Assembly (NCBI GenBank): GCA_030427445.1
Contig: JAUIBQ010000002.1
Coordinates: forward strand, 101-64,100
Direction of reading: 5' to 3'
Length of the DNA stretch: 64,000 bases
Source of the DNA: a bacterium
GTDB lineage: Bacteria; Patescibacteriota; Saccharimonadia; Saccharimonadales; SZUA-47
The notes under the pieces were generated by a model that saw only the letters and a list, made by a program, of their open reading frames with translations, did not search any database and was not told the DNA's origin. Positions 1 to 61,576 of this stretch are shown here, piece by piece; within the stretch, counting starts at the first letter, position 1, and each line of letters begins with the position of its first letter. Both the position numbers and the translations under genes were made by a program.

Positions 1-378
1 TTCACGGAGCTGGCCGGTGGCGATGTCCTGTAGAAAACTTGCGGCGTCGGCTAGTGTTTCGGCTGTTTCCGTTGAGGCCTCCCGTGTCGCACCAGCCCTC
101 TCTGCAAACTCGGTGATGAATTCTCTTTGTTCAGGAGTTACCTCACGCTGTTCTTCTATAGATCCGACGCCTGGGGTGGAGGATCCACGGCTATCTATTA
201 CGCCGTTACGTCTAGTTGCGAAGGCATTGTTATTCGTCCTAGCGTAGCCATCTTTTGCCTGCAAACGATAGAGTAACTCGTCTTCACGGAGCTGGCCGGT
301 GGCGATGTCGCCAAGGAATGAGTTAAAGTCAGCATTCTGCTGACGCTCCTGAGGTGTGACTGTTTCTAGTTCCGACAT
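1..378 (-). CDS. Hypothetical protein, N-terminal part (continues beyond window start); contains an internal sequence repeat (DIATGQLRE occurs twice)
   Basis: Minus-strand ATG at 376-378, open to window edge; not in ORF track because no stop in window. 27-bp exact DNA repeat at 1-27 and 282-308 inside it. Consensus promoter upstream (424-456). Confidence 0.4.
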   Translation of the reverse strand, partial: MSELETVTPQERQQNADFNSFLGDIATGQLREDELLYRLQAKDGYARTNNNAFATRRNGVIDSRGSSTPGVGSIEEQREVTPEQREFITEFAERAGATREASTETAETLADAASFLQDIATGQLRE

Positions 379-423
379 GTTTATTTTGAGGTGTTTGTTT
401 TTGTAATTACTATATAAACATTA

Positions 424-456
424 TAGCAAATTATGGCATTGTTGTCAATATTATAT
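424..456 (-). promoter_or_regulatory. Sigma70-type promoter (minus strand: TTGACA-17-TATAAT) for gene starting at 378
   Basis: Reverse complement reads aTATTGACAacaatgccataatttgcTATAATg; perfect -35/-10 with 17-nt spacer. Confidence 0.55.
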
Positions 457-669
457 ATTTGCTTCAATATATTAGCGAGTATACGTTTACTGCTGCCATA
501 GCTCCTAGAATATCCTTTAAACTAACAGCTATACAACCACGAACTAGGTATTTGAGCTTTATTTCACCTAAAGACTAAATCTGCGCCGAAGATTTTCGGA
601 GTCGAGACGAGTCGCCAATGATGCTCGCAGTAGTTCTGGACGTGATTCTTGATTCTTCATAGTTCTAAA

Positions 670-1968
670 TTACTGCTTAAGGAGAGCTACCAAACCAAGT
701 TCTTCATTATCCTCACCAAGCTCAGGAGCTAGCAACCAATAAGCATAGGTCGTGAGAATGGCGTGCTTAGGCATATCGGTACTACGTTTTTCATTATATT
801 CTTCTTTAGATATAACACCGCCCTCTAGATCCTTCCATATCTTCATGCGCGTATGAGCATAGTTCTGTATTTCTTTAACAATAGTTAAGCAGTCGTCTCC
901 AAATATGTCCTTTATCCGCTCCGGTGTCGCTCCTGCTAAAATACTATGTTGCGTTTTAACATCCTCAGAATTATTGAGTATATTACCAATATTTAGAAGA
1001 AAATTATCAAGCCCTTCAGTAGAAAGATTTAGCACTTCCCATTGCTGGCCTGCATATGATACCTTTTTTGTGTTCGTTCCATCTGGCAACTCTTCGAAGG
1101 TTGCGCTAGCATCAACACGACGTGCTAGTTTATTGAGTTCATCAGCTAAAACACCATCCGCATCTTTCTCGCGGTTTTTACCTGATTTTTCACCTTCAGT
1201 AACAAGCTGTAGTACGCTGTCTACCTCTGATTGGTAATAGCTAAAAGGTTTATTTTCTGATTTTTTACCAAATACAGACGCACTTCTCACACTGACGGGG
1301 ATACTAATTCCCTTATCTTCATCTTTATATACACCAAAATCATCGAGTCTTTTATGGATTTTATTAAGTGCTTCCTCTGCTTGGTCGTCGTCTAGACCAG
1401 TTAAATCAGCAATGATAATAAACTCGTCCCCGCCCCAACGAGCACTAACAGAGCCTTCTATGTCTTGTGCCACTTGCACAGAACCCACGACGTCATTTGC
1501 CGTACTGTTCTTACGTTCAATCTCCTCTTCCCTAGATTGCTTCTCGCCTGGTACACGTAACTCGGAGGTTATTTTTTGACCCATATAGCTGATCACATCA
1601 TTACCGACTTCGTGACCATGCAGTTTATTCATCTGCCCAAAGCCACGACCATCGCACATAATAAATGCGAACTGCTCAGGCTTATACCTATCGAACCACA
1701 TCTCTAGACCTTTAGGGTTGAGTAGGCCTGAGCGTGCGTCGGTAGTATTCTCCCTCGCCTCTTGTGCCAATCGCGTTACAGCACGACCCAACTCAGTCAC
1801 AGGTGGAATTTGACCCTGAAAATTATACTCCCCAGCATTTGCTAGCTCTTTTTGAAGCGAAACTAAATCATCAGCACTATAAAACCTCTCTTCACCATCT
1901 GCGACGGTCTTAATGTGAGGATTAGGGAGCATCTGCTCTGCAGGAGTCTTCGGTATCTGTTCTGACAT
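670..1968 (-). CDS. GGDEF-domain diguanylate cyclase with unknown C-terminal domain
   Basis: MCDGRGFGQMNKLHGHEVGND (DxDxF..N...GH..GD) and ARWGGDEFIIIADL match the GGDEF active-site region. Confidence 0.6.
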   Translation of the reverse strand: MSEQIPKTPAEQMLPNPHIKTVADGEERFYSADDLVSLQKELANAGEYNFQGQIPPVTELGRAVTRLAQEARENTTDARSGLLNPKGLEMWFDRYKPEQFAFIMCDGRGFGQMNKLHGHEVGNDVISYMGQKITSELRVPGEKQSREEEIERKNSTANDVVGSVQVAQDIEGSVSARWGGDEFIIIADLTGLDDDQAEEALNKIHKRLDDFGVYKDEDKGISIPVSVRSASVFGKKSENKPFSYYQSEVDSVLQLVTEGEKSGKNREKDADGVLADELNKLARRVDASATFEELPDGTNTKKVSYAGQQWEVLNLSTEGLDNFLLNIGNILNNSEDVKTQHSILAGATPERIKDIFGDDCLTIVKEIQNYAHTRMKIWKDLEGGVISKEEYNEKRSTDMPKHAILTTYAYWLLAPELGEDNEELGLVALLKQ

Positions 1969-2008
1969 ACTTTTGTTTTTGAATTTTTATGTTAGTAAAT
2001 AACGATAT

Positions 2009-2042
2009 AATTATAGCAAATTATTGCTTAAAAGTCAATATG
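2009..2042 (-). promoter_or_regulatory. Sigma70-type promoter (TTGACT-17-TATAAT) for the GGDEF gene; spacer nearly identical to promoter at 424-456
   Basis: Reverse complement: catATTGACTtttaagcaataatttgcTATAATtat; shares the ...ataatttgcTATAAT block with the 424-456 promoter. Confidence 0.5.
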
Positions 2043-2060
2043 CTTGTGATTATTTACTAC

Positions 2061-2633
2061 TTAGAGATAGTTAGTGAGTTTTTCTTTGATTTGAGCTTTG
2101 AGATCTTCCAGTGTATCTTCGTTAGTGATAACAATATCTGCTTCTTCGATGACGTATTTAATACCCTTCATGTCACCATCAGCAACACCTTCATTTTCGT
2201 AAGAATCCTGCTTCAAAAACTCTTCTAATGAGCGTTTGCTCTCCTCGTCTCGAGCTCGAGACATTATACGTTCATGGCGAACTTTCGGGTCTGCATCAAC
2301 AGCAATCATAATTCCGCCAGCTTCTTTCAACGCTTTCATCTCTCCGATTGAACGAATACCACTGATGATTTGGTAGTCGAAGTTTCGCTCTTTTGCCTGT
2401 AACACTCCCATCTGAACAGTGGTAGACTGATTAAGTTCACGTAGTTGCGTGGCTACCATGAACAGTTGGTCTCGTATAGGATTCTCGTCTGGTGGTAAAT
2501 CAAATAGAAATCGCGTAGACGCTCGTACAAAGTCTCCTGTTGAGTAGTTGTGCATACCAAACATTTCGCACATCAGCTCTGCGACCGTGTCTTTCCCGCT
2601 CCCTGCCGTACCAGTTAATCCAAATAGTTTCAT
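2061..2633 (-). CDS. P-loop nucleotide/nucleoside kinase family protein (dephospho-CoA kinase-like / dNMP kinase-like)
   Basis: N-terminal Walker A GLTGTAGSGKDTV; size ~190 aa; family assignment uncertain. Confidence 0.35.
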   Translation of the reverse strand: MKLFGLTGTAGSGKDTVAELMCEMFGMHNYSTGDFVRASTRFLFDLPPDENPIRDQLFMVATQLRELNQSTTVQMGVLQAKERNFDYQIISGIRSIGEMKALKEAGGIMIAVDADPKVRHERIMSRARDEESKRSLEEFLKQDSYENEGVADGDMKGIKYVIEEADIVITNEDTLEDLKAQIKEKLTNYL

Positions 2634-3133
2634 TGTGTTTTGTATCCTTTACCTTTAAGAATTGAAAATGCTTTTTTGATAACAGAAATCTCTGGATCAT
2701 CAGCACCTTTGATAACGTTTTGAATATCCTTGATCTGGCCCTCTGTTATCCATCGAATCTCTGAGTGGTCGTCAGGATGCAGCACGATATTTTCAGGGTC
2801 GTCTATAAATGTGGCGAAATAAACAAGCTCAATACTATGAGAACCCTTAATTTCATTCACATATGTAAACTCATCGAATAAGTCATGGATTTCAGCTCGT
2901 ACCTGAAACTCCTCCTGTATTTCCCTTGCAAGACCCGTTTTTATATCTTCGCCGAAATCGATATGGCCACCCGGGAGCTCAAATACTCCCGGCAAAAACT
3001 TTTTAACCTCCGAGCGCTTAGCTACAAGAATTTCGTGTTCGTTCTCATCGTTTAAACGATGAAATACAGCGACGGCCGAGAACACCTGTTGGTTTTTGGC
3101 CAGTGTCTCGCTATCGTGCTGTACTTTATTCAT
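2630..3133 (-). CDS. NUDIX hydrolase
   Basis: Nudix box GGHIDFGEDIKTGLAREIQEEFQV (Gx5Ex7REUxEExGU). 4-nt overlap with upstream kinase gene. Confidence 0.7.
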   Translation of the reverse strand: MNKVQHDSETLAKNQQVFSAVAVFHRLNDENEHEILVAKRSEVKKFLPGVFELPGGHIDFGEDIKTGLAREIQEEFQVRAEIHDLFDEFTYVNEIKGSHSIELVYFATFIDDPENIVLHPDDHSEIRWITEGQIKDIQNVIKGADDPEISVIKKAFSILKGKGYKTQ

Positions 3134-3190
3134 CGTTCTCCTTTATTAAATCGTAATTAATTACAGATTTATTCTGTGATTAATTATACA

Positions 3191-3269
3191 GCTCTGGGAA
3201 AAGAGCAGCCGGTGAAATCTGCTTTTGCAGTTTCCCGAGCGATGAGAAAAGGGCTTGCCCTTGTCTCAT
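3191..3269 (-). ncRNA. Conserved structured 3'-flank element, copy B (homologous to 6972-7040); multi-hairpin, immediately after the rpoD stop
   Basis: Minus strand reads ATGAGACAAGGGCAAGCCCTTTTCTCATCGCTCGGGAAACTGCAAAAGCAGATTTC..GGCTGCTCTTTTCCCAGAGC; hairpin 1 and 2 covary relative to copy A. Confidence 0.4.
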
Positions 3270-4432
3270 TACTTTAGATAATCCATAAGTTTACGGGAGT
3301 CTTTATTCTTTTTGAGCTTCATCAGAGCTTTTGCTTCAATCTGCCTAATACGCTCACGTGTGACAGCAAACTCTTGTCCCACCTCTTCGAGTGTGTGTTG
3401 TTTACCATCTTCGAGTCCGAAGCGTAGTCGTAGAATCTTCTGCTCACGATCGCTCAGGCTACCAAGGAGACCTTTCACCTGTTCCTTTAGTAATACGCCT
3501 GTTGCTGATTCTTCTGGAGTTGTCGTGTCCTCGTCTTCGATAAAGTCACCAAGTACAGAATCTTCTTCGTCGTTATGGACACTGGCATCAAGCGAGCTAA
3601 TGTCTTGCTTAATCTTCATAATGTGCTCAACTTTTTCGATGTCCATTTCCATCTCTTCAGCAATCTCTTCGTTGGTCGGCTCACGGTTCAGTTTCTGGGT
3701 GAGGCGGCGCTGAGTCCGTAGAAGTTTGTTGATGGTCTCAACCATGTGCACGGGGATACGAATCGTGCGTGCTTGGTCGGCTATCGCACGGGTAATCGCT
3801 TGGCGAATCCACCATGTCGCGTAGGTTGAAAATTTAAAGCCTTTATCTGGGTCGAACTTTTCTACCGCGCGCAGAAGTCCCGTGTTACCTTCTTGGATTA
3901 GGTCTAGGAGGTCTAAGCCACGACCGACATAACGTTTTGCGATAGACACCACAAGACGCATGTTTGCCTCTGCCATGTGATCTTTTGCCTTCTTGTCACC
4001 TGCTACGACTCGCTTCGCAAGATCTAGCTCTTCTTCTGCGCTGAGAAGAGGGATTTTACCAATTTCACGTAAATACAAACGGACTGAGTCATCAGCTATA
4101 TCATCTAAATATTTCTTATCAGTAGACTCTTTGATAACTTCATCGTCATCACCATCTTCGTCTACCCAGTCATCGTCGGCGTCCTTACCACTCGCACTCT
4201 TTGTCGTAATTTGTAGATTAGCCTCAGCCAGACGCTCGTAAAGTGCATCGAGTGCATCGACGTTGTCGTCATTATCAGGGATTGCGGCGTTGATTTCTTT
4301 CTGATCAATCTTGCCGTCTTTTTTTGCTTGCGCAAACAATGCTTCTGAGTGTTCTTCAACACTCATTGTAGGCTTTTTAGCCTTTCCCTTTTTCTTTACG
4401 GGTTCTTTCTTTGCTTTGTCGTCTTTACTCAC
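3269..4432 (-). CDS. rpoD: RNA polymerase sigma factor RpoD (sigma-70)
   Basis: Regions 2-4 conserved: [48 protein letters not shown]; acidic N-terminal region. Confidence 0.9.
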
Positions 4433-4452
4433 TAAGCGTTCCTTTGCTACAT

Positions 4453-6231
4453 TTAGTCATCAATAGATGTTGAGCGCACGAGCTCTATGATACGTTGACG
4501 CTCTGCGTCGACCGCTCGTACTTTGTTTAATAATTGTTTTTCTTGTTCTTCATCAGCCGTCTCAAACTGATTGAGTAACTGGTCTTTTTGGTATTTTGCA
4601 AACTGTTCTGCCAGTCGGATTGCTATGTTTTGAGCTTGATATAGTTGCTCATGCCTGTCCGTATGCTGGTACGTCTCTTCATAGAGTAGTGCAATCATTT
4701 TACCATAGTCTGTATCTGTTGGAAGAGTACCTGCCTCTTTCTCGAGCTTTTTCTTAACACTCAAGTTTTCTTCAGTCGTGCAAACACTGTCGGAAAATGC
4801 CGGAAGCCACTGACCAGCCACGAGAGTATTTGCACTTGCAATCGCTAGTAAATGCTGGAGAGATTTATCGAGTTTTAGCCTTTGCTCCTCTAGCTCGGTA
4901 GACTGCTGAATGTTGGTTGGTTTTTTACGTTGCGCAGGCTTATTTCCCGGTGACTCAGTAAGCTGCAGTTTTTTATTCAATGATTCAACAGACGTGCCAG
5001 TCTTTTCCGATAATCGGCTGATATAGTGCTCACGCTCAACGGGATCTTCAAGCTTCGTGACGATTTGCAAAATGTCATCTGCAAACGAACGTTTGCCTTG
5101 TGCAGTTTTAAGGTCATAGGACTGCTCTTTTTGCTGAATGAGCCAATCAATCATGTATAGGTTTTCATCGATAACTTTGAGCCATTTATTAGGATCATCT
5201 TTAACAAGCTCATCCGGATCTTTACCCTCAGGAATCGTGATAACACTCATGTCTAGTTTTAGTTTTTGCGCGAGTGGCACAGTGCGCTCAGCAGCAGTCT
5301 GCCCCGCCCTATCACTATCAAACGCGATGCGTATGTCGCCTGTAAAACGTTGCAAATCTTTCAAGTGAAACTCAGTCAATGCAGTCCCAGCAGATGCAAC
5401 GACATTCGCAACTCCTGCTTGGTGGCTTGCGACGACGTCCAGGTTGCCTTCGACGACAACAACAAATCCACTTTTTCTGATAGCCTGTTTTGCCTGCGAA
5501 AACCCATATAGCTGACGACCTTTGTCATACAGAATCGTTGCTGGTGTATTGATGTACTTAGGTGCGTTGTCGTCGCTTTTTAGCAACCTTGCTGTGAATC
5601 CTACAGGTCTGCCTTGGCTATCGCGCAGCGGGATCATTAACCGACCACGGAATAAGTCAAAATACCGTCCATCTCGCTCACCTACTAAGCCGACTTTTTT
5701 AAGCTCTTGCTCCTTAAATCCTTTACTCAAAAGATAGTCCATCAGCGGACTTCCCTTTTCTGGTGAATAACCAAATGCAAAATCGAGAATCGTTTGCTTG
5801 CTAAATTCACGTGTTTTACGTACGTAATCCAACGCCATTGACGACTGCAGTAAAGCTCGTTGATAAAACCGCACTGCTAACTCAACTGCTTCATAGAGCC
5901 GCTCTTTTTCTTGTTTGTTTTTCTGTGAACTACCTGATTGCGTCTTCGAATACTGATCAAGATCGATACCGGATTTACGAGCAAGTAGTTCAAGTGCTCG
6001 TTTAAAATCGACACCCTCTACTTCTTGGATAAAGCTGAACATATCACCACCGCGACCCGAGCTAAAATCATGCCAGATTTGCTTCTCAGGGCTAACGATA
6101 AAACTCGGAGTACGCTCGGTTGTGAAAGGACTCAAACCTTTGAAGTTTCTGCCAGCACGCTTCAGTGCGACATACTCTGACACGACATCTTCGATGTTAA
6201 GCTTCGATTTTATATCCGCAACTGCGTCCAC
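4453..6231 (-). CDS. dnaG: DNA primase DnaG
   Basis: Zinc-ribbon region [30 protein letters not shown], Toprim [12 protein letters not shown]; rpoD-dnaG synteny. Confidence 0.9.
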
Positions 6232-6340
6232 GTTTTTACCTTTCTCTTATCAATAATTATCGTGTATCTAGTGCGTAGTATCAAGCACTAGTGTATTCAC
6301 GGCGTAAATATGTAGAAGTTTGTTACAATAAAGTGTAACC

Positions 6341-6913
6341 ATGAGCGATTATGATTTCATCTTACAAGACCAGCAAAAACGTCGAGGCAATAGTTTACTC
6401 CAAGGCTCTTTCCAGCGAAGGCTGATCGGTTTTGTTTTTATAGCTATTGTACTCGTCGTTGTGATTGTACTTTTTAGCATATTACTGAACAGTGGCAAGC
6501 CGTCAGCTTCTGCTTATCTCCCCGTTGCAATCCGTCAGGAAGAGCTGCTTCGTGTGCTGGAAAACCGTGATGATTTAAGTGACCAAACGCTAAAACCTGG
6601 CTACACCACACTCTTCCTTGCTGTCACAAGTGATTTGCAGGCTTCAAACGACTACTTAGCAAAGAATGGAGTTGTGATATCACCCGAGGACAGGACTCCT
6701 TACTACTATTTTGATTTAGAATCTGACCTCGAAGCGGCAAAGTCAGCAAACAGATTTGATGCTGAACTAGAGGCTTACGTTGATAAAGCACTTGCTGACT
6801 ACTCACAAACCCTACTTGGTCTCGAACCGACAACTGGCCAAGCACCGCTACTCGACCAGGCAAAGCAAAACGTTATTTTCTATAACGGCGTTCCTGAGAC
6901 TGAATCTGAATAA
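6341..6913 (+). CDS. Hypothetical membrane-anchored protein
   Basis: N-terminal TM (LIGFVFIAIVLVVVIVLFSILL), no recognisable domain. Confidence 0.4.
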   Translation: MSDYDFILQDQQKRRGNSLLQGSFQRRLIGFVFIAIVLVVVIVLFSILLNSGKPSASAYLPVAIRQEELLRVLENRDDLSDQTLKPGYTTLFLAVTSDLQASNDYLAKNGVVISPEDRTPYYYFDLESDLEAAKSANRFDAELEAYVDKALADYSQTLLGLEPTTGQAPLLDQAKQNVIFYNGVPETESE

Positions 6914-6916
6914 GAT

Positions 6917-6965
6917 TAGTGGATTCCGAGGACGAGGTTGTAGCTGTGAACTATCAGGTCTTTAA
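6917..6965. repeat. 49-bp perfect direct repeat, copy 1 (tagtggattccgaggacgaggttgtagctgtgaactatcaggtctttaa)
   Basis: Identical to 7046-7094; starts 3 nt after the stop of 6341..6913. Confidence 0.9.
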
Positions 6966-6971
6966 CTACTC

Positions 6972-7040
6972 ATGAGAAGGGCAAGCCCCTCTCATCGCGC
7001 AGGGAACGAAATCAATTCGTTCATCTGGCTGCTCTCCCCT
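6972..7040 (+). ncRNA. Conserved structured element, copy A (homolog of 3191-3269), located between the two 49-bp direct repeats
   Basis: ATGAGAAGGGCAAGCCCCTCTCAT (11-bp stem) + GAACGAAATCAATTCGTTC (7-bp stem) + GGCTGCTCT; compensatory changes vs copy B. Confidence 0.4.
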
Positions 7041-7044
7041 TTTA

Positions 7045-7380
7045 CTAGTGGATTCCGAGGACGAGGTTGTAGCTGTGAACTATCAGGTCTTTAATTTGTT
7101 CGTCGCTTAACTGGCCAGTGAGTAAAATTGTGTTCCAATGCTTTTTGTTCAAGTGGTAACCTTCCATCACTGACTCATATTCACTGCGAAGCTTAACCGC
7201 AAGCTGCGGATCGCACTTAAGACTAATTTGTAATGGTGATTTATTGTTCGGGATAAGCGCAAACATCTTTTCATCATCACCAACAGGAGCTTTATAGACA
7301 TTCACATCCTCACCAAATGGAAAATCGAGCCGAGCATTCGGCATGGCTAACACTAATTCTTCTAACTCTTTAATTGTCAT
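7045..7380 (-). CDS. MmcQ/YjbR-family predicted DNA-binding protein
   Basis: ~110 aa, motif ..GYHLNKKHWNTILL.. typical of YjbR family. Confidence 0.55.
   Translation of the reverse strand: MTIKELEELVLAMPNARLDFPFGEDVNVYKAPVGDDEKMFALIPNNKSPLQISLKCDPQLAVKLRSEYESVMEGYHLNKKHWNTILLTGQLSDEQIKDLIVHSYNLVLGIH
7046..7094. repeat. 49-bp perfect direct repeat, copy 2; encodes the C-terminal 16 aa of the YjbR-family gene
   Basis: Exact match to 6917-6965. Confidence 0.9.
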
Positions 7381-8015
7381 GATTTTTCTCCAATTATATC
7401 TTTTGCAAAATAATTTACTACTAGCTGACCGTCTTTTTCAGAAATACTCGTTAAAGAACAGTTAGGCGTACTGCACGCGAGAATTTGATCTCTATCCCAC
7501 CCATTTATGTATGCAGCTAAACACCTTATTGCCATACCGTGCCCCGTAACCAGTACAATGTCATCCTTATGCTCTTTGACCAACGCTTGAGTTACGGCAA
7601 ACTTACGCTCGGCAACGTCACCCAGTGATTCACCGTTTGGGAGTTTAAATGACATGCCTTGATCTTGAGCCTGCTGACTATTTTCAGGTGTCCATATAAT
7701 GTCACGGAACTCTCCTTCAGCATCACCCTGCCCCATTTCTTGTAAGTCATCTAGAATCTCAGGCTTTAGATCAAAATTCAATGTATCCAACACTATTGCA
7801 CCCGTCGTTACAGCGCGCAATGCAGGACTTGAATACCACGCATCAAAACGCACCCCTTCTTTAGTAAAGTACTCTGCTGCCCTTTGAGCTTGTTCGACTC
7901 CTGTATCATTTAAAGGAAGCCAATTACTACGTCCTCCTACTTTAGAATAGGGGCTATTCTCTCTTTGCTCAACATTGTATGGCGTCTCTCCATGACGCAG
8001 AAAAAGTAGCGGCAT
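7377..8015 (-). CDS. Histidine phosphatase family protein (phosphoglycerate mutase-like)
   Basis: LRHGETPYN (RHG motif) near N-terminus and LVTGHGMAIR second His motif. Confidence 0.7.
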   Translation of the reverse strand: MPLLFLRHGETPYNVEQRENSPYSKVGGRSNWLPLNDTGVEQAQRAAEYFTKEGVRFDAWYSSPALRAVTTGAIVLDTLNFDLKPEILDDLQEMGQGDAEGEFRDIIWTPENSQQAQDQGMSFKLPNGESLGDVAERKFAVTQALVKEHKDDIVLVTGHGMAIRCLAAYINGWDRDQILACSTPNCSLTSISEKDGQLVVNYFAKDIIGEKS

Positions 8016-25007: not shown

Positions 25008-25054
25008 TTAACAGGGGTTAATTGTACCATTAAACATGTATAATTACTAGTGTT

Positions 25055-36563: not shown

Positions 36564-38207
36564 ATGGCAAAAAAGGTTTTCTATGACGAAGATGCACGAC
36601 GGAGAGTATTAGGCGGAGCATCGATTTTGTATAACGCGGTCAAGACAACCATGGGACCGAAAGGTCGCAATGTTGTTATCGGCAAAGGGTACGGCGGACC
36701 TAGCGTTACGCACGACGGTGTGACAGTAGCTAAGGGAGTCGATATTGCAGACGTCGACGACGAGACACTGGGATATAGCGTTGGAGCGGAGCTTATTAAA
36801 GAAGCTGCGAACAAGATGAATGATGTCGCCGGTGATGGAACAACTACCGTGACTGTGCTCACGTATCACATCCTAAATGAAGCAAACAAACTCATCGCTG
36901 CGGGCCATAACCCGATGGCATTGCGACGAGGACTTGATAAAGCAGCAGAGGAAGTATTGAGTCAATTAGACGGTATGAGCGAGGACATTTCTGGTAAAAA
37001 AGCGAAGATTGCCGAAGTGGCTACAATCTCAGCAGGCGACAAAGAAATCGGTGCGTTGATCGCTGACGTGATGGATAAAGTTGGTAAAGATGGAGTCGTT
37101 ACAGTTGAAGAAGGTCGTAGCCTTGAAGTTGAACAAGAAGTTGTTGAAGGGTTTACGTTCGACAAAGGCTTCGTTAGCCCGTATATGGTGAGCGACGCTG
37201 AGCGACTTGAAGCAGTAGTTAATAAACCTGCAATCGTCATCACTGATAAAAAAATCAGTTCTATCTCAGAGATTCAGCCAACACTTGAGCTCCTCGCAGC
37301 CTCTGGTAAAAAAGATCTTGTGCTGATCGCCGAAGACGTCGAAGGTGAAGCACTTACGATGCTTGTACTCAACAAACTCAAAGGCGTTTTTAACACTGTA
37401 GCGGTTAAGGCACCGAGCTTCGGTGACAGAAGGAAAGAAGTCTTGAGTGATATTGCAGCGCTCACTGGTGGAGCAGTTATCAGTGAAGAGCAGGGAGATA
37501 GCCTCGAGAATATAACGGTGGAGCACATTGGTAGCGCAAGGAAAGTAATTGTCTCAAAAGATGAAACTACTATCGTCGAAGGCGACGGCAGTGAAAGTGC
37601 TATTAAGAAACGGATTAGCGCGATGAATACTCAGATCGCCTCAACTACAAGCGCTTACGACAAAGGTGAGCTTGAGAAGCGACGAGCTGCTTTGCAAGGT
37701 AAAGTTGCTGTCATCAAAGTAGGTGGCGCATCAGAGACTGAAATTGAGGAAAAGAAATACCGGGTTGATGACGCGGTTGCAGCCGTAAAAGCAGCTCTCA
37801 GTGAAGGTGTCGTGCCAGGTGGTGGTGTGACACTCGTAAACCTCGCAAGCACAATCTCCACACTTGCGGAGGCAACTGAGGATGCGGGCGCGCAACTATT
37901 AGCACGAGCGCTCGAAAAACCTTTCAGGACACTGCTTGAAAACTCAGGACTTAACGCCGATGAATGGCTACCGAAAGTTAAATCAGCGAAAGCTGGGCAA
38001 GGGGTTGACGTCAATAACCCTGACAAGCTTGTTGACCTTAAGAAGGCTGGTGTTATCGACCCAGTATTGGTCACGAGACAAGCCGTCCAGTACGCGACAT
38101 CCATCGCTGGTACAAGCATGACGATGGGAGCACTTGTCGTCGATGTACCAGAGAAAGAAACCTCAGCCCCAGCCAGCCCAGGCATGGGTGGCATGGGTAT
38201 GATGTAA
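36564..38207 (+). CDS. groEL: Chaperonin GroEL
   Basis: [40 protein letters not shown]-terminal GMGGMGMM. Confidence 0.95.
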
Positions 38208-38423
38208 AGCGCTTCGCTAACGAGACAAAACCCTGATGGTTTTTTCTCGTCGTGCAGGGTCGCAGAGTAAATCTGCAGACTCTGGCTGCTCTTTTTCCTT
38301 CCGGTATAAGTAGTAAGTGTGTTTATTTATAGATAAAACTCTTGATTTTTTGTCGTTTTTGTAGTATTATATAAGTATAATACAAATATTGTGTTGATAA
38401 CAGAGGTGGGCAGGAGAGAGACT

Positions 38424-44900: not shown

Positions 44901-45027
44901 TGCCGGTGGCAGTACGCAAGGCCGGAGCACCGGCGAACATTAGTTCCCGATGCGAGGTGTGCCGACGGCTGATTTGAGCTTTAGCTCAAGTAAGACCGTG
45001 GGTGTTGGCGTATAATCAGGTTGACGA

Positions 45028-46914: not shown

Positions 46915-47343
46915 CTAGACGACGTTATCAACGCTGTTCGCTGTACCGAGTACGAATCGAACGATAACTTGCGCTAACGCAACTACTACAAGGCCGATAA
47001 CCGCATAAAGGATGGTGTTCTTAGCACCAGATACGCTGTCTGATGAACCTTGGGAAGTGATGTATTTCACGCCACCTACCATAATCATGACAACAGAAAT
47101 GATACCAATAATCCACGAGAATAGGTTAATCGCATCAATAACTAGTTGGTTAACATTGTTTCGACCTGCGTCAGTCGCTGTGCCACCGCTACAGGTAGCA
47201 TTAAGATTGAGCTGAGACCCTTTACAAAGTCCTTCTTCTGTATTGTTCTGAGCTACAGCAACTGTCACAGGCACAAGTGGTGCGCCGAAGGTAGCAAGGC
47301 TCAAAATCGCGGTCATCATAAATGTTTTAATTTTTTGGATCAT
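46915..47343 (-). CDS. T4SS pilin-like protein, paralog 1 (signal peptide + variable Cys-pair ectodomain + conserved two-helix C-terminal domain)
   Basis: C-terminal IIGIISVVMIMVGGVKYITSQGSSDSVSGAKNTILYAVIGLVVVALAQVIVRFVLG shared by 7 tandem ORFs; VirB2/TrbC-like topology. Confidence 0.6.
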   Translation of the reverse strand: MIQKIKTFMMTAILSLATFGAPLVPVTVAVAQNNTEEGLCKGSQLNLNATCSGGTATDAGRNNVNQLVIDAINLFSWIIGIISVVMIMVGGVKYITSQGSSDSVSGAKNTILYAVIGLVVVALAQVIVRFVLGTANSVDNVV

Positions 47344-47439
47344 TATTATTTTCTCCTTTTATTAGAAAATACCTACATTTTCATGTGTTTACGCACTTAA
47401 GTGTATCTGGTTTTATGAAAAAATTCTAGTGTTTTAGCT

Positions 47440-47886
47440 TCAAGAATTAGCAATGTCTGCAGTAGTGCCGAGTACAAAGCGTACTATCAGTTGTGCTAGT
47501 GCTACTACTACGAGGCCGATGATAGCGTAGAGAATGGTGTTTTTCGCTGCAGTGACATTGCCTGAATCACCCTGAGAAGTGATGTACTTCACACCACCAA
47601 CCATGATCATAACGACTGCGATAATGCCAATCACAAGAGAGAAAAGGTCTATTGCGGTCGCGATAAGTTCTGAAATTTGCTCTTCAGCTATACCAAAATC
47701 TGAACCACAGTCCACAGCGTCTTCGTCTATGTTCGCACCTCGACATAAATTTTCTTGAATGTCCTGCGCTCCGACTTGCGGTGAAAGAAACGGCACAAAT
47801 AGTAGTCCTGTGACCATTAGCACCACAGCCGGGAAGTGTACAATCTTTGATGCGAGAAGCGCGAGTGAATGTGATGAATTAAACAT
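47440..47886 (-). CDS. T4SS pilin-like protein, paralog 2
   Basis: VIGIIAVVMIMVGGVKYITSQGDSGNVTAAKNTILYAIIGLVVVALAQLIVRFVLG; Cys pair LCRGANIDEDAVDC. Confidence 0.6.
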   Translation of the reverse strand: MFNSSHSLALLASKIVHFPAVVLMVTGLLFVPFLSPQVGAQDIQENLCRGANIDEDAVDCGSDFGIAEEQISELIATAIDLFSLVIGIIAVVMIMVGGVKYITSQGDSGNVTAAKNTILYAIIGLVVVALAQLIVRFVLGTTADIANS

Positions 47887-47904
47887 ACTAACCTTTCAAT
47901 TACT

Positions 47905-48312
47905 TTATGCAAAGAATCCGAGGACGAAGCGAACAATGAGCTGTGCAAGTGCGACGACGACGATTCCGATTGCTGCGTATATGATAGCATTCTTTGCTTG
48001 AGAAACCTTCTGTGAGTCTCCTTGAGAGGTGATGTAGCGTAAGCCTGCCAGCATAATCATCAATACTGCGATAATGCCAGCGACAAAAGAAAGTAGGTTT
48101 AGTGCTGATTCAAGTCCATTATCAATAGTTACGTCGTCTGTGTCATCGGTGCATGAAGCATTATTGTCGATAACTCCAAGTGATTCACATGCAGCATCTG
48201 AAGAGTTATTTTGAGCATGTACCAGTTGCGCCGGAAAGAAAAGACTGAATAAAAAGACACCTGTGATAAGAAGCTTGCTAACTGAAGTTAATTTTCTCGT
48301 CATATCGTACAT
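47905..48312 (-). CDS. T4SS pilin-like protein, paralog 3
   Basis: VAGIIAVLMIMLAGLRYITSQGDSQKVSQAKNAIIYAAIGIVVVALAQLIVRFVLG; Cys pair ACESLGVIDNNASC. Confidence 0.6.
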   Translation of the reverse strand: MYDMTRKLTSVSKLLITGVFLFSLFFPAQLVHAQNNSSDAACESLGVIDNNASCTDDTDDVTIDNGLESALNLLSFVAGIIAVLMIMLAGLRYITSQGDSQKVSQAKNAIIYAAIGIVVVALAQLIVRFVLGFFA

Positions 48313-48322
48313 TATAAAACCC

Positions 48323-48727
48323 TTAGTTTATTAGCTCTCCAATAACAACTGAGACGATGGCTTGAGCAAACAGGACAATCACGATACCTATTACAGCATA
48401 TATCATGAGGTTTCTTGCACTGTTAAACTTCTGTGGATCGCCGTCAGACGTCATCATCTGGACACCACCAACAATAATTATAATAACTGCAATAATACCT
48501 GCCACGATTGAGAGGATATTGAAAACACTTCTAAATAAACCGTCCTCACCACTAACGGGGTCTTCTGTGCTCTGTAAATCTTGGCATATCGGTGAACTAG
48601 ATGAGTCATTTCGACACACTTCGTTGATAGCATTACTTTGTGCACCGACCAAGGTAGGCGATAAAGAAATCAGGATAACGAATAGCAAAGCCAGAGTCGA
48701 TAGAGATGTTTTTATGCTCGTTATCAT
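48323..48727 (-). CDS. T4SS pilin-like protein, paralog 4 (more divergent)
   Basis: VAGIIAVIIIIVGGVQMMTSDGDPQKFNSARNLMIYAVIGIVIVLFAQAIV; Cys pair VCRNDSSSSPIC. Confidence 0.55.
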   Translation of the reverse strand: MITSIKTSLSTLALLFVILISLSPTLVGAQSNAINEVCRNDSSSSPICQDLQSTEDPVSGEDGLFRSVFNILSIVAGIIAVIIIIVGGVQMMTSDGDPQKFNSARNLMIYAVIGIVIVLFAQAIVSVVIGELIN

Positions 48728-49014
48728 AGTGCCCCCGCAACAAATCTTATAATTGAAGTTGCAAGTGCAGCAATGATAATTCCGACTATTGCGTATATGA
48801 TTGTATTTCTTGCATTTTTTGTTTTCTGTGGATCACCTTGTGAAGTTATGAAATTAATGCCAGCAACAATAATAACTACAGTCGCAACAGCAACCACCAA
48901 GATAAATACCCACCCCATTATGGTGTCTAAGCCTGCTTCCTGATTTTCATTTTTAGGCAAACCAGTAAGGTCGTCTGGGTTGATATTAATCTGAGAAAGC
49001 TTGTGAAAATACAT
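48724..49014 (-). CDS. T4SS pilin-like protein, paralog 5 (core only; lacks signal peptide and Cys-containing variable domain)
   Basis: VAVATVVIIVAGINFITSQGDPQKTKNARNTIIYAIVGIIIAALATSIIRFVAG; overlaps paralog 4 start by 4 nt. Confidence 0.5.
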   Translation of the reverse strand: MYFHKLSQININPDDLTGLPKNENQEAGLDTIMGWVFILVVAVATVVIIVAGINFITSQGDPQKTKNARNTIIYAIVGIIIAALATSIIRFVAGAL

Positions 49015-49015
49015 A

Positions 49016-49468
49016 TTACCCTCCCAGAGTCCTTCCTACATATGCAACAATTTGTGATGCAATAAGCACTATAGCGAAACCAATAGCAGCGTTTATAACT
49101 GTTTGGCGCGCTTTTGTAGCGTTGTCAGGATTGCCTTGAGATGTAATAAACTTAAACGAACCCCAGAAAATCATAACTAATGCTACGAATGTTGACGCCT
49201 TTAATAACCCTTCAAGGATGGTGATGCCTATCACTAAAGAAGTATTGACTTGCTCTTCTTCGTCGCCGTCACCTAAAGAAGGCTGACAATCCCCCTCTTC
49301 ACTTTCTGGTAAATAGTTATACCATGCAGGTATAGTGAGAAAGCTGTCTTGACACCTCACCGGTAGAGCATGGGCTTTCTGGGGAGCGGCATTGCTAGCG
49401 ATAGCCAATGCACTAAAAATAACTATCAAACTAACTGTCATCTTTAAAAATATAGTCTGCAGCTTCAT
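49016..49468 (-). CDS. T4SS pilin-like protein, paralog 6
   Basis: FVALVMIFWGSFKFITSQGNPDNATKARQTVINAAIGFAIVLIASQIV; Cys pair RCQD..DCQP. Start set to ATG 49468 (signal peptide MKLQTIFLKMTVSLIVIFSALAIASNA) because the longer ORF-track version overlaps paralog 7. Confidence 0.5.
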   Translation of the reverse strand: MKLQTIFLKMTVSLIVIFSALAIASNAAPQKAHALPVRCQDSFLTIPAWYNYLPESEEGDCQPSLGDGDEEEQVNTSLVIGITILEGLLKASTFVALVMIFWGSFKFITSQGNPDNATKARQTVINAAIGFAIVLIASQIVAYVGRTLGG

Positions 49469-49508
49469 TACAAATATCATATACCATTTATTAGCCAAAG
49501 ACCAAAGC

Positions 49509-50057
49509 CTAGAGCACTCCTCCTGGCACGAGGAAATTAAGTAAACCATACCCAAACACGAATAGTGCTAGTGCAACCAGAGCCCAAACGATACGTTTTT
49601 TAGCTGCAGCAACCGCCGCCGGATTATCGCGAGCCGACATATATTGATATCCAGCAAACATGACTGACGCGACTATCGCCATAATGGCTAAGGCAGACAA
49701 AAAGTTAATCGCAATTACTAGATAGTTAATGATCGTACAATTGTCTTTACTAAGAGCTACACCATTACCTGGCTCACAGTTATTTGGATCTGAGGCGTCA
49801 AAACCACTTACACCTTCTGTTTCGCTAACACACGCTCCATCTATAGAGCTAGTCCCGATTTGGCACTGACAATACTCTGCTGTAACTGCTCTTCCAGCAA
49901 CTACTTCTGTTTCTGTAGTCCATGTACCACCAGACGCTTTGCATGCTTCTTCATCAGCAGAGACTGTGGGTGGTGCTACAAAAAACAGAAAAACACCTGT
50001 TGCTAGAATCGCGACTATGAGTGAGTTGATTATATAAATTTTTATTTGATTAAGCAT
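49509..50057 (-). CDS. T4SS pilin-like protein, paralog 7 (largest, Cys-rich ectodomain; first gene of the pilin operon)
   Basis: FLSALAIMAIVASVMFAGYQYMSARDNPAAVAAAKKRIVWALVALALFVFGYGLLNF; seven Cys in ectodomain. Start set to ATG 50057 (RBS aaagg). Confidence 0.5.
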   Translation of the reverse strand: MLNQIKIYIINSLIVAILATGVFLFFVAPPTVSADEEACKASGGTWTTETEVVAGRAVTAEYCQCQIGTSSIDGACVSETEGVSGFDASDPNNCEPGNGVALSKDNCTIINYLVIAINFLSALAIMAIVASVMFAGYQYMSARDNPAAVAAAKKRIVWALVALALFVFGYGLLNFLVPGGVL

Positions 50058-50160
50058 TTTATTACCTTTATATTTTATAGTATACAAACATTTAATACTA
50101 TGTACAAAAATAGTATTTGTGTACATAGTACTTACGTTTTTAATATCAATGGTTTATTGG

Positions 50161-50166
50161 TATAAT
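50161..50166 (+). promoter_or_regulatory. TATAAT -10 box in divergent promoter region between pilin operon and T4SS operon
   Basis: ttattggTATAATtttactaattcaagggggcatcTTG; flanked by TGTACA-N16-TGTACA palindromes at 50099-50126. Confidence 0.4.
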
Positions 50167-50188
50167 TTTACTAATTCAAGGGGGCATC

Positions 50189-50821
50189 TTGGGCAAGGCA
50201 TTTATAATCAAATTCATCACTATATCAGTAGTGCTAGCATTACTAGTATTCGTGGGCACTATAGTATATAGATTTTTTTTCGATAAGGTGATGATTAATG
50301 AAAATAGCCTTGTTGTTACATCAAACAACAACGTAGAGTACATGACTCCAGACAACTGGAATGAACTTTACACGGGATCTACTGACTTAACCGTCGCGTA
50401 CTCGCCTAAGGAAGAGGATAGTTTAGAAAGCGCAGATGATATCCTAGGTTTTAGAGTAGAAAATAAAGCACCGACAAATTTTAGTTATACCAATCTCACT
50501 TCAAATGAAAAACAAATTGCAGAGACAAACCTAATAAATGACTACACTGATCCTGATTTTTTTGAGTATATATGTTCTGATCCCAGCAATATTTCCGCTA
50601 CGAAAGATGTACAAACTCTGGAGAATTTTGATTTGTCGTTTAGTATTAGCATGGACTGCAACAGAGAGTCTGAAAATGGAGTTTTGCCAAGTAAAATAAA
50701 TGCTGTTGCAGGAATAAAAGCTGGGACTGAGTACATTTTGTTTTATAGTGTAAGCGAAAAAACATATAAGAATAACGAGGTAGTTCTGGCAAAGATACTA
50801 AATTCGCTTAGCTACTTATAG
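50189..50821 (+). CDS. Hypothetical membrane-anchored protein, first gene of T4SS operon (TTG start)
   Basis: RBS aaggggg 5 nt upstream of TTG; N-terminal TM FIIKFITISVVLALLVFVGTIVY. Confidence 0.4.
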   Translation: MGKAFIIKFITISVVLALLVFVGTIVYRFFFDKVMINENSLVVTSNNNVEYMTPDNWNELYTGSTDLTVAYSPKEEDSLESADDILGFRVENKAPTNFSYTNLTSNEKQIAETNLINDYTDPDFFEYICSDPSNISATKDVQTLENFDLSFSISMDCNRESENGVLPSKINAVAGIKAGTEYILFYSVSEKTYKNNEVVLAKILNSLSYL

Positions 50822-50878
50822 ATACCTCTTATACCGATATGCCCTTAGTTAATAATATGCTAGTATTCACTCATAGAA

Positions 50879-53800: not shown

Positions 53801-54412
53801 GGTGCGGGACAAATTATAGATGGGGGTGCGGGATTTGGCACAACAAGAGGGGAGATGCTAACTGCTGCCTCTGCTGGAGGGGAGAGGAGTTTCGATGAAA
53901 TATCTCAGTCACAGCGCAGGTACGAAACTGCAGCAATGGAGTCAAAGTCTATGCAATCTCTCCTACATGAACAAATGAAGGCTGGCAACTACGACAAAGT
54001 TGCGAGCTTCTTGCGAACGAATATATCTGAAGCCTATGAGTCAGGCGATCAGAGACGTATTGAACAGGCTGTTGCTGTTGCAGAGCAGGCGCATGTGATA
54101 GCAAAAAACGCTAGTCCAGCAGCAGACAGAGCAGTGTCTGAAGTCATGGACATGCCAGTTTATGTAGGCATGTCGTCCGCTAATGCAAACAGCCCATTCA
54201 ATCGGGACCCTACGGGAAGACGCATATTGTCCGCTCAGGAACGTGATGCACCAACAGTAAGGCAAGAAACTCATCGTCTGGGTAGAGATTCTGGTACATA
54301 CCAAGACATTCAAAGACAATATACAGAGGCCGAATATCAAGGTCAATCTCAAATTATGGGAAGAACCCCTGATGTAGGAGCAAGTACACCAGGACCCACT
54401 GAAGGACTTTAA
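50879..54412 (+). CDS. Giant polytopic membrane protein, VirB6/TrbL-like channel component with large extracytoplasmic N- and C-terminal regions
   Basis: Signal/TM at N-terminus, ~450-aa acidic ectodomain, central block of >=6 TM helices, Gly-rich C-terminal ~400 aa. Confidence 0.45.
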   Translation: MQRNKSKAIILNKIRAQQLFVVAYFMILLINMLGLFNVGQVRAAPFYENIQTDYTVYNLLVGFSYSCGVDGGDDRRMSLDDMNDVYDNDEGNDNAGYDGNNYESDPGKRINLGLSTSGFGVIDGMASCDEIATEAVTRIMDYYEIDNDRPTDADEAKSYIINFLSVSAGDTKEDMIEYIESLEGDGLKDVLGINSTIELRSNAWRNFVDTITEPMFEEIGQSLVDNVTEIDLANWIAPALNYCLDWSDTAPQNNDDIRIDLSSTAGLYGFTPVDGYSESRMSEVFSSFDKGSDGKLFAGKSWASIADGEFYFLFRDYARYPSENSGAFHDAYEAFIDTTTAYLSGGWSLVVGPDDSEEGYFYPFGYSSELFFDDVPSARSHNEGFRRGGLLSCQNIEENVSKFDDGMEGKGDGRNIQAKAPTAGTGVPQNTTGNGGEAVAAQPSCESQGGAFSFILCPALEAMGDGFVWFDQRIEDALVVNTSYITNDGTRDAWNNFRNIAYILLIPIMLVMVIGTALNFNFLDAYTVKRALPRLFAAVIFITLSYSICLLMIEVTNVIGAGTRGLISSPFGGTEALSLENIFNPPGAGGTALYGLAIFGGIGIAALSGVTIGSLFVTVALGALALLIVFVLLYLRELLITLLVILAPLAIVAWIFPGNDKPWKFWWQAFSKMLYFFPVVIAVITFGKAFASIVDVVAGEDGNVITTMIKIVAYVGPYFFIPKLFTMAGGALGNIAGMVNDRSKGVFDRGRKAREGMKANQRQQIKAGGGGVFGVGKNSRIGKGFGSMGAGAYGIGKSLSDNGVAGLSRGNITAARRANEAIHGKKMLDDDHDMGVWDGNDTVSGISSDLMTGNVTGLALQLSRAHGLSESDAMAEARGMVSQFRRNSGQGLENAFSRIGGMEGAELRTAVAQVQTARGKYSDDILSRHLVEKAMAGGTYYKNSGEAWHAAGLATEGNENAVASMNVTGRKALIGAGQIIDGGAGFGTTRGEMLTAASAGGERSFDEISQSQRRYETAAMESKSMQSLLHEQMKAGNYDKVASFLRTNISEAYESGDQRRIEQAVAVAEQAHVIAKNASPAADRAVSEVMDMPVYVGMSSANANSPFNRDPTGRRILSAQERDAPTVRQETHRLGRDSGTYQDIQRQYTEAEYQGQSQIMGRTPDVGASTPGPTEGL

Positions 54413-54449
54413 GGAAAATTACGTAAAACTGTTATAATACTAGTGTTTT

Positions 54450-55607: not shown

Positions 55608-55677
55608 TATCAAAACTGATTCAAACGTTAGAATCAGTTTTGAAGTAAGGGTGGGAGACCAGTAAATACACGAAAAT

Positions 55678-56484: not shown

Positions 56485-56486
56485 TC

Positions 56487-58403: not shown

Positions 58404-58430
58404 GTATGAGAGGGCGCGCGTAAAAACAAA

Positions 58431-61568: not shown

Positions 61569-61576
61569 AGAACTTT

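Follow-up and report, generated by a model that had tools for sequence, protein, structure and literature searches.

A previously unreported structured repeat spread through the genomes of Saccharibacteria

What are the two homologous, hairpin-rich segments that lie near gene ends on either side of rpoD and dnaG in a Saccharibacteria contig (assembly GCA_030427445.1, contig JAUIBQ010000002.1, positions 101 to 64,100)? This 64,000-nt stretch is called the window below. A first-pass annotation had paired element A, on the plus strand, with element B, on the minus strand, and had read the compensatory changes between their hairpins as a sign of conserved RNA structure, such as a stability or termination element of the 3′ untranslated region (3′-UTR) or a small RNA (sRNA). 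Both elements are real, lie where they had been placed and are homologous. The 64-kb window contains two instances, and no more, of their common core, GGGCAAGCCC-N(0-6)-CTCATCGC (0 expected, none seen in 100 shuffles), and the likeness of the two elements beyond chance is borne out by a covariance model built from 34 related copies, which matches A at 6968-7047 (74.4 bits, E 8.5e-18) and B at 3190-3273 (68.0 bits, E 4.8e-16). The same model finds a third copy in the window, element C (52.6 bits, E 7.8e-12), and many others at Saccharibacteria loci. A, B and C are copies of a previously unreported structured repeat spread through Saccharibacteria genomes, and on balance we take it to be a small, non-coding, non-autonomous mobile repeat specific to Candidatus Saccharibacteria.

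Target duplications, empty sites and host range

Element A is an 80-nt inserted segment (6966-7045, plus strand) made up of a hairpin P1 (6972-6995), a hairpin P2 (6997-7029) and a 3′ tail, CUCUCCCCUUUU (7030-7044). It is bracketed by a perfect 49-nt direct repeat (0 expected by chance), which the first-pass annotation had overlooked. The right copy of this target-site duplication (7046-7094) is the functional 3′ end of a YjbR-family gene (7045-7380, minus strand), since the Pfam match of the protein reaches residue 106 of 111, and the left copy (6917-6965) repeats the final 49 nt of yjbR but is non-coding. The final base of the element, the C at 7045, completes the yjbR TAG stop codon on the minus strand. 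Orthologous sites in relatives (L046, L047 and L048; related loci are cited by such numbers throughout) are empty: on contigs encoding YjbR proteins 81%, 85% and 77% identical, the gene order is the same, the yjbR stop codon and the convergent 190-aa gene are 4, 0 and 7 nt apart, and no element is present. Alignment with these relatives shows that the window gained the 49-nt duplicate together with the 80-nt element. Element A is demonstrably a recent insertion into the last 49 nt of yjbR, a gene that survived because the target was duplicated.

Abutting direct repeats were found at 13 of the 160 copies for which both flanks are available, with lengths of 50, 49, 42, 38, 38, 38, 31, 31, 27, 21, 21, 20 and 16 nt. 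The inserts delimited by these repeats measure 80-114 nt around a core of ~75 nt and carry variable extra bases at both ends, so that their ends are fuzzy. Terminal inverted repeats are absent from all 13, as their first and last 12 nt match at 2.8 of 12 positions, the chance level, and the left flanks of copies vary (GTA, CCTC, CCTT, AC, GCAC and others). Duplicated targets are often gene termini, including the first 38 nt of msrA (L110) and a ribosome-binding site with its start codon (L002), while one conserved gene end, ...CCTTCGCAGCATTT, was duplicated in four genomes. The element thus lands on gene ends of compact genomes and leaves the gene intact because the target is duplicated. At the msrA insertion (L110, 5340-5500), the old msrA start opens a frame of ~50 codons through the whole element, its TGA overlaps the real msrA ATG (ATGA), and a GGAG box lies in the 3′ extra bases of the insert, 8 nt before that ATG.

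Element B (3194-3271, minus strand) is a whole copy that starts in the rpoD stop codon (TAA, 3269-3271; TAATGAGAC), with P1 at 3242-3269, P2 at 3208-3240 and the pyrimidine tail CUCUUUUCCC within 3194-3207. Three relatives (L048, L050 and L056) carry a copy at the position of B, likewise overlapping the rpoD stop; B is older than A. In the same relatives, a further, weak copy lies antisense between dnaG and rpoD, where the window has none. Element C (38216-38304, plus strand) lies 12 nt past the groEL stop, and consists of P1 (38220-38250), which shows a compensatory base change of its own (ACGAGA/UCUCGU), P2 (38252-38286) and a tail, CUCUUUUUCCUUCC, from 38287. The upstream open reading frame (ORF; 36564-38207) is identified as groEL because its 547-aa product ends in GMGGMGMM and Cpn10 is encoded upstream, and at L036 a copy likewise immediately follows groEL. 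The description of A and B as lying directly downstream of stop codons holds for B, but A starts 56 nt past the stop of the neighboring ORF (6341-6913).

Host range was assessed with a pattern in which the single-stranded parts are fixed and both hairpins are free, CTCATCGC-N1-4-GGGAA-N12-32-GGCTGCTCT, applied to one genome per bacterial species. This search returned 45 genome loci, 33 of which contain the full element, all from Candidatus Saccharibacteria or from unclassified metagenome-assembled genomes (MAGs); the other 12 match by chance in coding sequence from different phyla, without hairpin 1 and with poor scores. The window itself belongs to Saccharibacteria: its YjbR protein is identical to a protein at NCBI and has relatives annotated as Saccharibacteria. 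Metagenomes yielded at least 120 loci, and the covariance model revealed additional second and third copies inside many of the 8-kb loci. An nhmmer profile search gave 179 copies in 151 sources among the matches listed, with up to 4 copies in 5 kb. Density is roughly 25-50 copies/Mb (~25/Mb if only copies at a distance from the anchor match are counted), with 3 copies in the 64 kb of the window. The covariance model could be used to mask and annotate these repeats in Saccharibacteria MAGs, where repeats can break assemblies and extend ORF calls.

About one third of copies, chiefly those linked to tRNA genes, have the motif RGCTGCA 3-6 nt past the tail (e.g., L103, L134, L074), often followed by a small extra hairpin such as GGGCTGCAAATTGCAGCCC; this extension may be the third module of a longer subfamily. 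The scan against Rfam (15), which the first-pass annotation had proposed, assigned the elements to no known family: at the gathering score it reported only five tRNAs in the whole window, at E<=10 it had nothing overlapping A or B in 2900-7400, and on eighteen related loci it reported rRNA and tRNA only. There is no sign of a phage origin, given 0 matches to the family pattern in the viral contigs scanned. A literature search found no published description of the element, and Saccharibacteria have been described as having no validated small RNAs or repeat families (bioRxiv 10.1101/2022.03.25.485537).

Fold, tail and strand of the element

The conserved part of the element is its fold rather than its sequence, and the same plan recurs in all copies. 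P1 is a hairpin of ~11-13 pairs with an invariant base, AUGAGA/UCUCAU, mostly a C·U mismatch at position 5, and a freely variable upper stem (AAACC/GGUUU, ACCCC/GGGGU, GGGGA/UCCCC, GAACC/GGUUC). A single-base linker joins it to P2, a bulged hairpin closed by GC(G/U)CXG / CYGGC, where the X-Y pair is C-G in 73 copies, G-C in 26 and A-U in 17, and the 3′ tail reads UGCUCU(U/C)nCCC. Minimum free energy folds of A, B and C contain the two hairpins of the first-pass annotation plus a free 3′ tail (B, -29.1 kcal/mol, z -4.4; A, z -2.6; C, z -4.2).

The compensatory changes that had been seen between A and B hold family-wide. On 120 distinct copies, pairing is found in 90.3% of cells, vs 71.2% after shuffling and 40-52% with slid partners, and 17 of the 22 pairs have changed on both sides, with 494 doubly changed cells against 141 expected, although subfamily copies share descent, which makes the shuffle statistics overstate independence. 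Variants that keep the core include an extra hairpin in the P1 loop (L038, L069, L081, L143, L025), a three-way junction replacing P2 (L037/L075, L051, L002, L041), and a mini copy with P2 down to a few bases (L131). Hammerhead, HDV-like, pistol and hatchet ribozymes, integron attC sites and group II intron domain V were considered as identities and rejected, as their defining cores are lacking and none has an Rfam match here.

The tail is coupled to P1: it is the mirror image of the P1 3′ arm, and hence the parallel complement of the purine-rich 5′ arm. Thus, the 5′ arm GAGAGGGGA is accompanied by the tail CUCUCCCCU (both copies of L017, and L033), GAGAGGAGA by CUCUCCUCC (L013b), GAGACAAGGG by CUCUUUUCCC (B in the window), GAGA[A]GGGC by CUCUCCCC (A in the window), and GAGCGGGG by CUCACCCC (L048). 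In the 120-copy alignment, with the mismatch column skipped, columns 16/135 combine A with U in 107 copies and G with C in 10, leaving 3 exceptions; the corresponding counts are 68 and 8 for columns 17/136 (C with C in 39, 5 exceptions) and 62 and 8 for columns 19/137 (C with C in 44, 6 exceptions). The number of U residues in the tail tracks the number of A residues in P1; the coupling is significant by permutation over 31 P1 types (p<=0.001), and run lengths in tail and P1 are correlated over 41 types (rho 0.68).

This coupling in parallel register suggests, from covariation only, a major-groove triple helix. The tail would run along the major groove of P1 and form with it a triple helix of the pyrimidine motif, composed of U·A-U and C+·G-C triples, since the mirror relation of two pyrimidine tracts is what such a triplex requires; the geometry would also fit, because the tail exits the base of P2 right beside the base of P1. 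A Watson-Crick pseudoknot between the tail and GGGAA is not favored, as GGGAA is paired within P2 and copies without GGGAA (C in the window, L017b, L048) still have a matching tail. In ENE-type elements, a triple helix hides the 3′ end from exonucleases, and by analogy the 3′-terminal triplex proposed here would shield transcripts from 3′ exonucleases. Among bacterial RNAs, the element is a naturally occurring candidate for a long triple helix sensitive to pH.

Which of the two strands folds was judged from features that distinguish RNA from its complement. On the strand on which the elements were originally described (the plus strand of the element), 31 of 89 unique P1 sequences have UNCG loops, compared with 5 of 89 on the reverse complement, and C-UNCG-G loops number 13 vs 1. 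P2 loops are A-rich on the plus strand, G·U pairs per copy amount to 1.04 against 0.27 on the reverse complement, and the plus strand is the more stable in 87% of copies, a statistical asymmetry that is seen in every genomic context. UNCG loops and G·U pairs probably favor an RNA fold on the originally described strand, with single-stranded DNA (ssDNA) as a possible substitute. The earlier claim of a conserved RNA structure is therefore upheld as to the fold, its abundant covariation and its RNA-type features; as to its being RNA, ssDNA of the same strand could also adopt the folded form.

Genomic contexts, proposed role and rival explanations

Copies occupy several kinds of sites, in which their orientation differs (sense and antisense refer to the plus strand of the element relative to the adjacent gene). 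Beside stop codons, 28 copies start <=40 nt from a same-strand stop and 25 end <=40 nt from an opposite-strand stop. In front of tRNA genes, 38 copies are antisense, with the tRNA 5′ end 1-13 nt from the P1 end and 15 amino-acid species represented, and only 3 sense copies adjoin an upstream tRNA. Another 5 antisense copies adjoin 5S rRNA, at 0-13 nt from its 5′ end. At the tRNA-linked loci, a native stable-RNA promoter, TGnTAnAAT-nn-CCYCTGTT, is located 15-45 nt past the tail, and transcription from it crosses the reverse complement of the element before it reaches the tRNA. None of the five tRNA genes in the window has the element, and the three whose upstream region was read have their -10 box 9-13 nt from the mature 5′ end; the element must therefore have landed in a gap of a few bases. 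The element-free genes at 25008-25054 and 45005-45027, with arrangements such as TACAAT-taa-CCCCTGTT-aa-tRNA-Arg, would yield nearly leaderless primary transcripts, and TAnAAT-nn-CCYCTGTT recurs at tRNA promoters of many Saccharibacteria loci. A promoter within the reverse complement that would drive the tRNAs was considered and rejected, since the native one is on the far side of the element and those parts of loop and stem from which a -10 box would be built show no conservation.

Antisense copies outnumber sense ones 17 to 4 in rRNA operons, and many of these copies lie within 23S rRNA (L031, L037, L051, L058, L070, L075, L116, L125, L160). The 23S genes of L031 (2197-5780) and L037 (100-3944) are 3584 and 3845 nt long, compared with a 2925-nt model, and that of L058 spans 71-3409. 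These three genes exceed the bacterial model by 650-900 nt, which comprises at least 2 element copies plus other inserts; in L058, four copies are packed into 2.4 kb, each of them antisense to the rRNA. The element may account for part of the odd insertions in rRNA genes of the candidate phyla radiation (CPR). All 4 copies found in long reading frames are antisense as well, and reside in genes for a TlyA rRNA methyltransferase (L079, 2024-2102), an RlmD-like methyltransferase (L027, 1922-1999), and, for L137 (2925-3000) and L161 (9426-9501), an HhH-GPD glycosylase and an unknown protein. The TlyA insertion of ~23 aa is in-frame within the FtsJ domain: 33 residues (…GGRAARASDALRARRDEKPRKGC…) take the place of 10 in PDB 3hp7, and the extra peptide is the translated element.

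Two loci, L029 (1-90, minus strand) and L025 (~340-420, minus strand), have just past their element copies a gene with a tRNA-like 5′ end (GGGGTTTGGCGCAGTTGGTAG... and GGGGTGTGGCGCAGCC..., respectively) that then becomes unlike tRNA; neither Rfam nor ARAGORN recognizes these genes. The 21-nt target duplication at L029 includes the -10 box and the first bases of that gene. An outward promoter as a general feature of the element was rejected, since an extended -10 is found in only 7 of 142 downstream flanks, and the boxes after B (TGTATAAT) and at L029, which are similar, belong to the flank.

The simplest explanation of the orientation rule would be that sense copies are polar, by termination and/or by a very stable fold blocking the transcript. 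P2 with the U-rich tail would end or stabilize the upstream transcript, as after rpoD for B and after groEL for C, and transcript 3′ ends would fall at ...CUCUUUUCCCUU past these genes. Sense copies would be harmful inside transcription units, and copies in tRNA leaders, rRNA and reading frames would therefore be almost all antisense, while beyond gene ends both orientations would be tolerated. Such polarity would fit the sense placement of B at the end of the dnaG-rpoD operon and of C at the end of groES-groEL, and for B an operon-end role would fit because TGTATAAT, a putative extended -10 for the NUDIX gene, follows directly. A terminator or stabilizer role for sense copies such as B and C is thus plausible from their placement, and to this extent the original proposal stands, although the element is neither a dedicated 3′-UTR element nor a single-locus sRNA gene. 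If sense copies do end or stabilize transcripts, the element would be a portable 3′-end module that shapes operon boundaries, as at rpoD and groEL. Replication-strand bias was rejected as the cause of the orientation rule, since copies by highly expressed protein genes are sense and those by tRNA and rRNA genes are antisense.

Several observations weigh against a mobile RNA-folding repeat with polar sense copies. Selection on sense copies leaves unexplained why 38 copies lie in the 5-10 nt gap between transcription start and tRNA and not upstream of the promoter. A simple terminator scan calls neither A nor B; P2 is bulged, and the U-tract is interrupted (UGCUCUUUUCCC) and begins 3 nt after the stem. 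In A and B of the window the reverse complement folds slightly better, making the strand asymmetry statistical only, and C opposite a C-G pair (39-79 cells) is a non-canonical triple. Finally, Pfam scans of 58 of the 63 called ORFs in the 64-kb window found no reverse transcriptase (RT), transposase, integrase or HUH nuclease, nor did any gene emerge as a partner of the element.

How a mobile repeat of this kind would move can be considered at the RNA or at the DNA level. It might be a retroposon resembling short interspersed nuclear elements (SINEs), in which plus-strand RNA with its 3′ end in a triple helix is reverse-transcribed from a nick in the target, and a staggered second nick gives the variable duplications; we consider this unlikely, yet worth serious attention. 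It would agree with the long and variable duplications of 16-50 nt, the fuzzy insert ends without inverted repeats, and the RNA-type fold with its UNCG loops and G·U pairs and its covarying tail. The 5′ part is missing from two copies that still have the tail (L093, 7418-7447; L045, 6033-6061), and none is 3′-truncated, although two such copies are few. Moreover, the reverse complement is consistently on the sense strand of highly transcribed stable-RNA genes, as nick-priming in the displaced non-template strand would predict. However, no RT is found among the scanned ORFs of the window or linked to the element, and there is no A-rich or other evident priming tail. Long variable duplications are also produced by some DDE transposases, e.g., that of IS1634 of Mycoplasma, and are not unique to retroposition. 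We know of no bacterial retroposon of this kind; should the element prove to move by way of RNA, it would give bacteria their first SINE-like element. The fuller version, in which a CPR retroposon has its 3′ end protected or presented in the triple helix and is target-primed, with a preference for the exposed non-template strand of tRNA and rRNA genes, is more doubtful still.

Movement at the DNA level, through ssDNA hairpins recognized by a transposase or nuclease encoded elsewhere, as in REP/RAYT or IS200/IS605 systems, with the RNA features being incidental, is likewise improbable but deserves to be kept in mind. It would account for copies in both orientations and in all contexts, including antisense copies in transcribed genes, and covariation is equally expected for ssDNA, in which T·A-T and C+·G-C triplexes can form. 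A subfamily has a 5′ extension, GGCTTCGCC, whose complement, GGCGAAGCC, contains GCGAAGC, a very stable DNA mini-hairpin. Against this, C-G-closed UNCG loops are enriched on one strand (31 vs 5 of 89) and G·U positions are conserved, both hallmarks of RNA; IS200/IS605 types use a fixed 4-5-nt target without duplication, whereas here the flanks vary and the duplications are long; and the scanned ORFs of the window include no candidate enzyme gene.

It is rather improbable that the element functions through its reverse complement, as a module in the leader or spacer of stable-RNA precursors (for instance as a signal for processing or folding just before the mature 5′ end of tRNAs and 5S rRNA), with other copies being dispersed relics. 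The tRNA-linked copies do always turn the same end to the tRNA, the 5S-linked ones are equally close to the gene, and the native promoter transcribes the reverse complement into the tRNA. Nevertheless, the five window tRNAs do without the element, with the -10 boxes of the three read upstream only 9-13 nt away, so that such a module is not needed; the UNCG loops are on the other strand; and the tRNA-linked group has the same asymmetry as the rest, with the plus strand stabler in 89% of its copies and G·U pairs at 1.11 vs 0.18. The weakest alternative, a non-mobile host cis-acting 3′-UTR element or sRNA gene as first proposed, is very unlikely: the overlap of B with the rpoD stop, kept in the relative with the 77%-identical YjbR, the groEL position shared by C and the L036 copy, and the 28 same-strand stop-adjacent copies would suit it, but A is insertion-polymorphic, with a 49-nt duplication and empty sites in relatives, stop-adjacent copies are antisense about as often as sense (25 and 28), and others are found in 23S rRNA, in-frame in proteins, and antisense before tRNA and 5S genes.

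Of the genes around A and B, Pfam identifies a NUDIX gene (2630-3133), rpoD (3269-4432) and dnaG (4453-6231), all on the minus strand; the 190-aa ORF on the plus strand (6341-6913) has no domain. The extended -10 promoter-like box TGTATAAT (3183-3190, minus strand), read from the sequence, is directly downstream of B and 50 nt upstream of the NUDIX start (3133); a simple promoter scan does not list it, having no -35 match. Between this box and the NUDIX start there is a near-perfect inverted repeat, TAATTAATCACAGA-N5-TCTGTAATTAATTA (3154-3186, minus strand), which looks like an operator site. Elsewhere in the window, a 432-aa protein (670-1968, minus strand) has a weak partial GGDEF match, unusual in such a reduced genome. 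Six tandem type IV secretion pilin paralogues (Pfam T4SS_pilin/TrbC; 46915-50126, minus strand) are followed on the plus strand (50879-63109) by genes for a PrgI-family protein, a VirB4/TraG-like ATPase and a cell-wall hydrolase with a C39-like peptidase domain, and by two ORFs of >1000 aa; the gene set at 46915-63109 looks like a conjugation-type secretion island.

Comparison with known repeats

Overall, the element is a small structured interspersed repeat outside any named family, and its insertion signature is without good bacterial precedent. Saccharibacteria, a poorly understood phylum of tiny parasites in which the family is widespread, are among the bacteria with the most compact and smallest genomes, and the element bears on the persistence of selfish DNA or RNA under extreme reduction. 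Correia/CREE, ERIC, BOX, RUP, REP/BIME and MIRU repeats are small, non-autonomous, multi-copy, mostly intergenic and foldable, and often lie at gene ends; MIRUs, in particular, share bases with stop and start codons, a feature also seen in B at the rpoD stop. The element shares with miniature inverted-repeat transposable elements (MITEs) its small size, lack of coding capacity, multiple copies and insertion polymorphism, but MITEs have terminal inverted repeats and a fixed short duplication, in contrast to the chance-level similarity of the ends and the 16-50-nt duplications found here. REP/REPIN sequences are single palindromes of 20-40 nt, extragenic and tied to RAYT, unlike an element of ~80 nt with 2-3 hairpins and a tail and with copies in 23S rRNA and reading frames; no Y1 or other transposase was found among the 58 of 63 window ORFs scanned. 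Variable left flanks and long duplications also set it apart from IS200/IS605-derived repeats (PATEs).

Eukaryotic-type SINEs resemble it in their variable duplications and fuzzy ends, a combination that the element displays, and in the lack of inverted repeats, the conserved RNA fold, occasional 5′-truncated copies and an association with tRNA genes. It differs from them in having no A-rich tail, internal promoter or known partner RT, and it is not tRNA-derived, as it sits in the DNA just upstream of tRNA genes. The likeness to intrinsic terminators, a loose one, consists in the G+C-rich base of P2 followed by a U-rich stretch, the location of B and C at operon ends, and an orientation bias that would fit a polar effect; unlike them, the element has an interrupted U-tract (UGCUCUUUUCCC) 3 nt after a bulged stem, as well as an extra conserved hairpin and conserved single-stranded bases, and canonical terminators do occur elsewhere in the window, e.g., after tRNA-Arg. 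With the MALAT1/PAN ENE and the triplex pseudoknots of telomerase RNA, SAM-II and preQ1-II it would share successive U·A-U and C+·G-C triples that join a hairpin to a 3′ tail, in a stretch that by covariation spans at least 4 variable and 4 invariant positions. In the ENE, however, the 3′ tail is an A-rich purine strand clamped by a U-rich internal loop, whereas here the tail would supply the pyrimidines on the Hoogsteen side, and the purines would come from the 5′ arm of an ordinary hairpin; neither ENE nor triplex-pseudoknot families have an Rfam match at the elements.

The closest functional and ecological analogue, judging by descriptions rather than sequences, is the Rickettsia palindromic element (RPE). 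RPEs are selfish, structured non-coding repeats of ~100-150 nt that have no transposase associated with them and occur in intergenic regions, in-frame in proteins and in stable-RNA genes. Homology to RPE-1 to RPE-8 is not expected because the lineages are unrelated, and the element differs from RPEs in its length of ~80 nt, its CPR host lineage, its 2-3 separate hairpins with a P1-covarying tail in place of a simple palindrome, its long variable target duplications and its strong orientation rule near tRNA and rRNA genes. Like RPEs, it is short and structured, belongs to a lineage with reduced genomes, and combines in-frame insertion in proteins (tlyA at L079 and the RlmD-like gene at L027) with insertion in stable-RNA genes, as in the copies within 23S rRNA.

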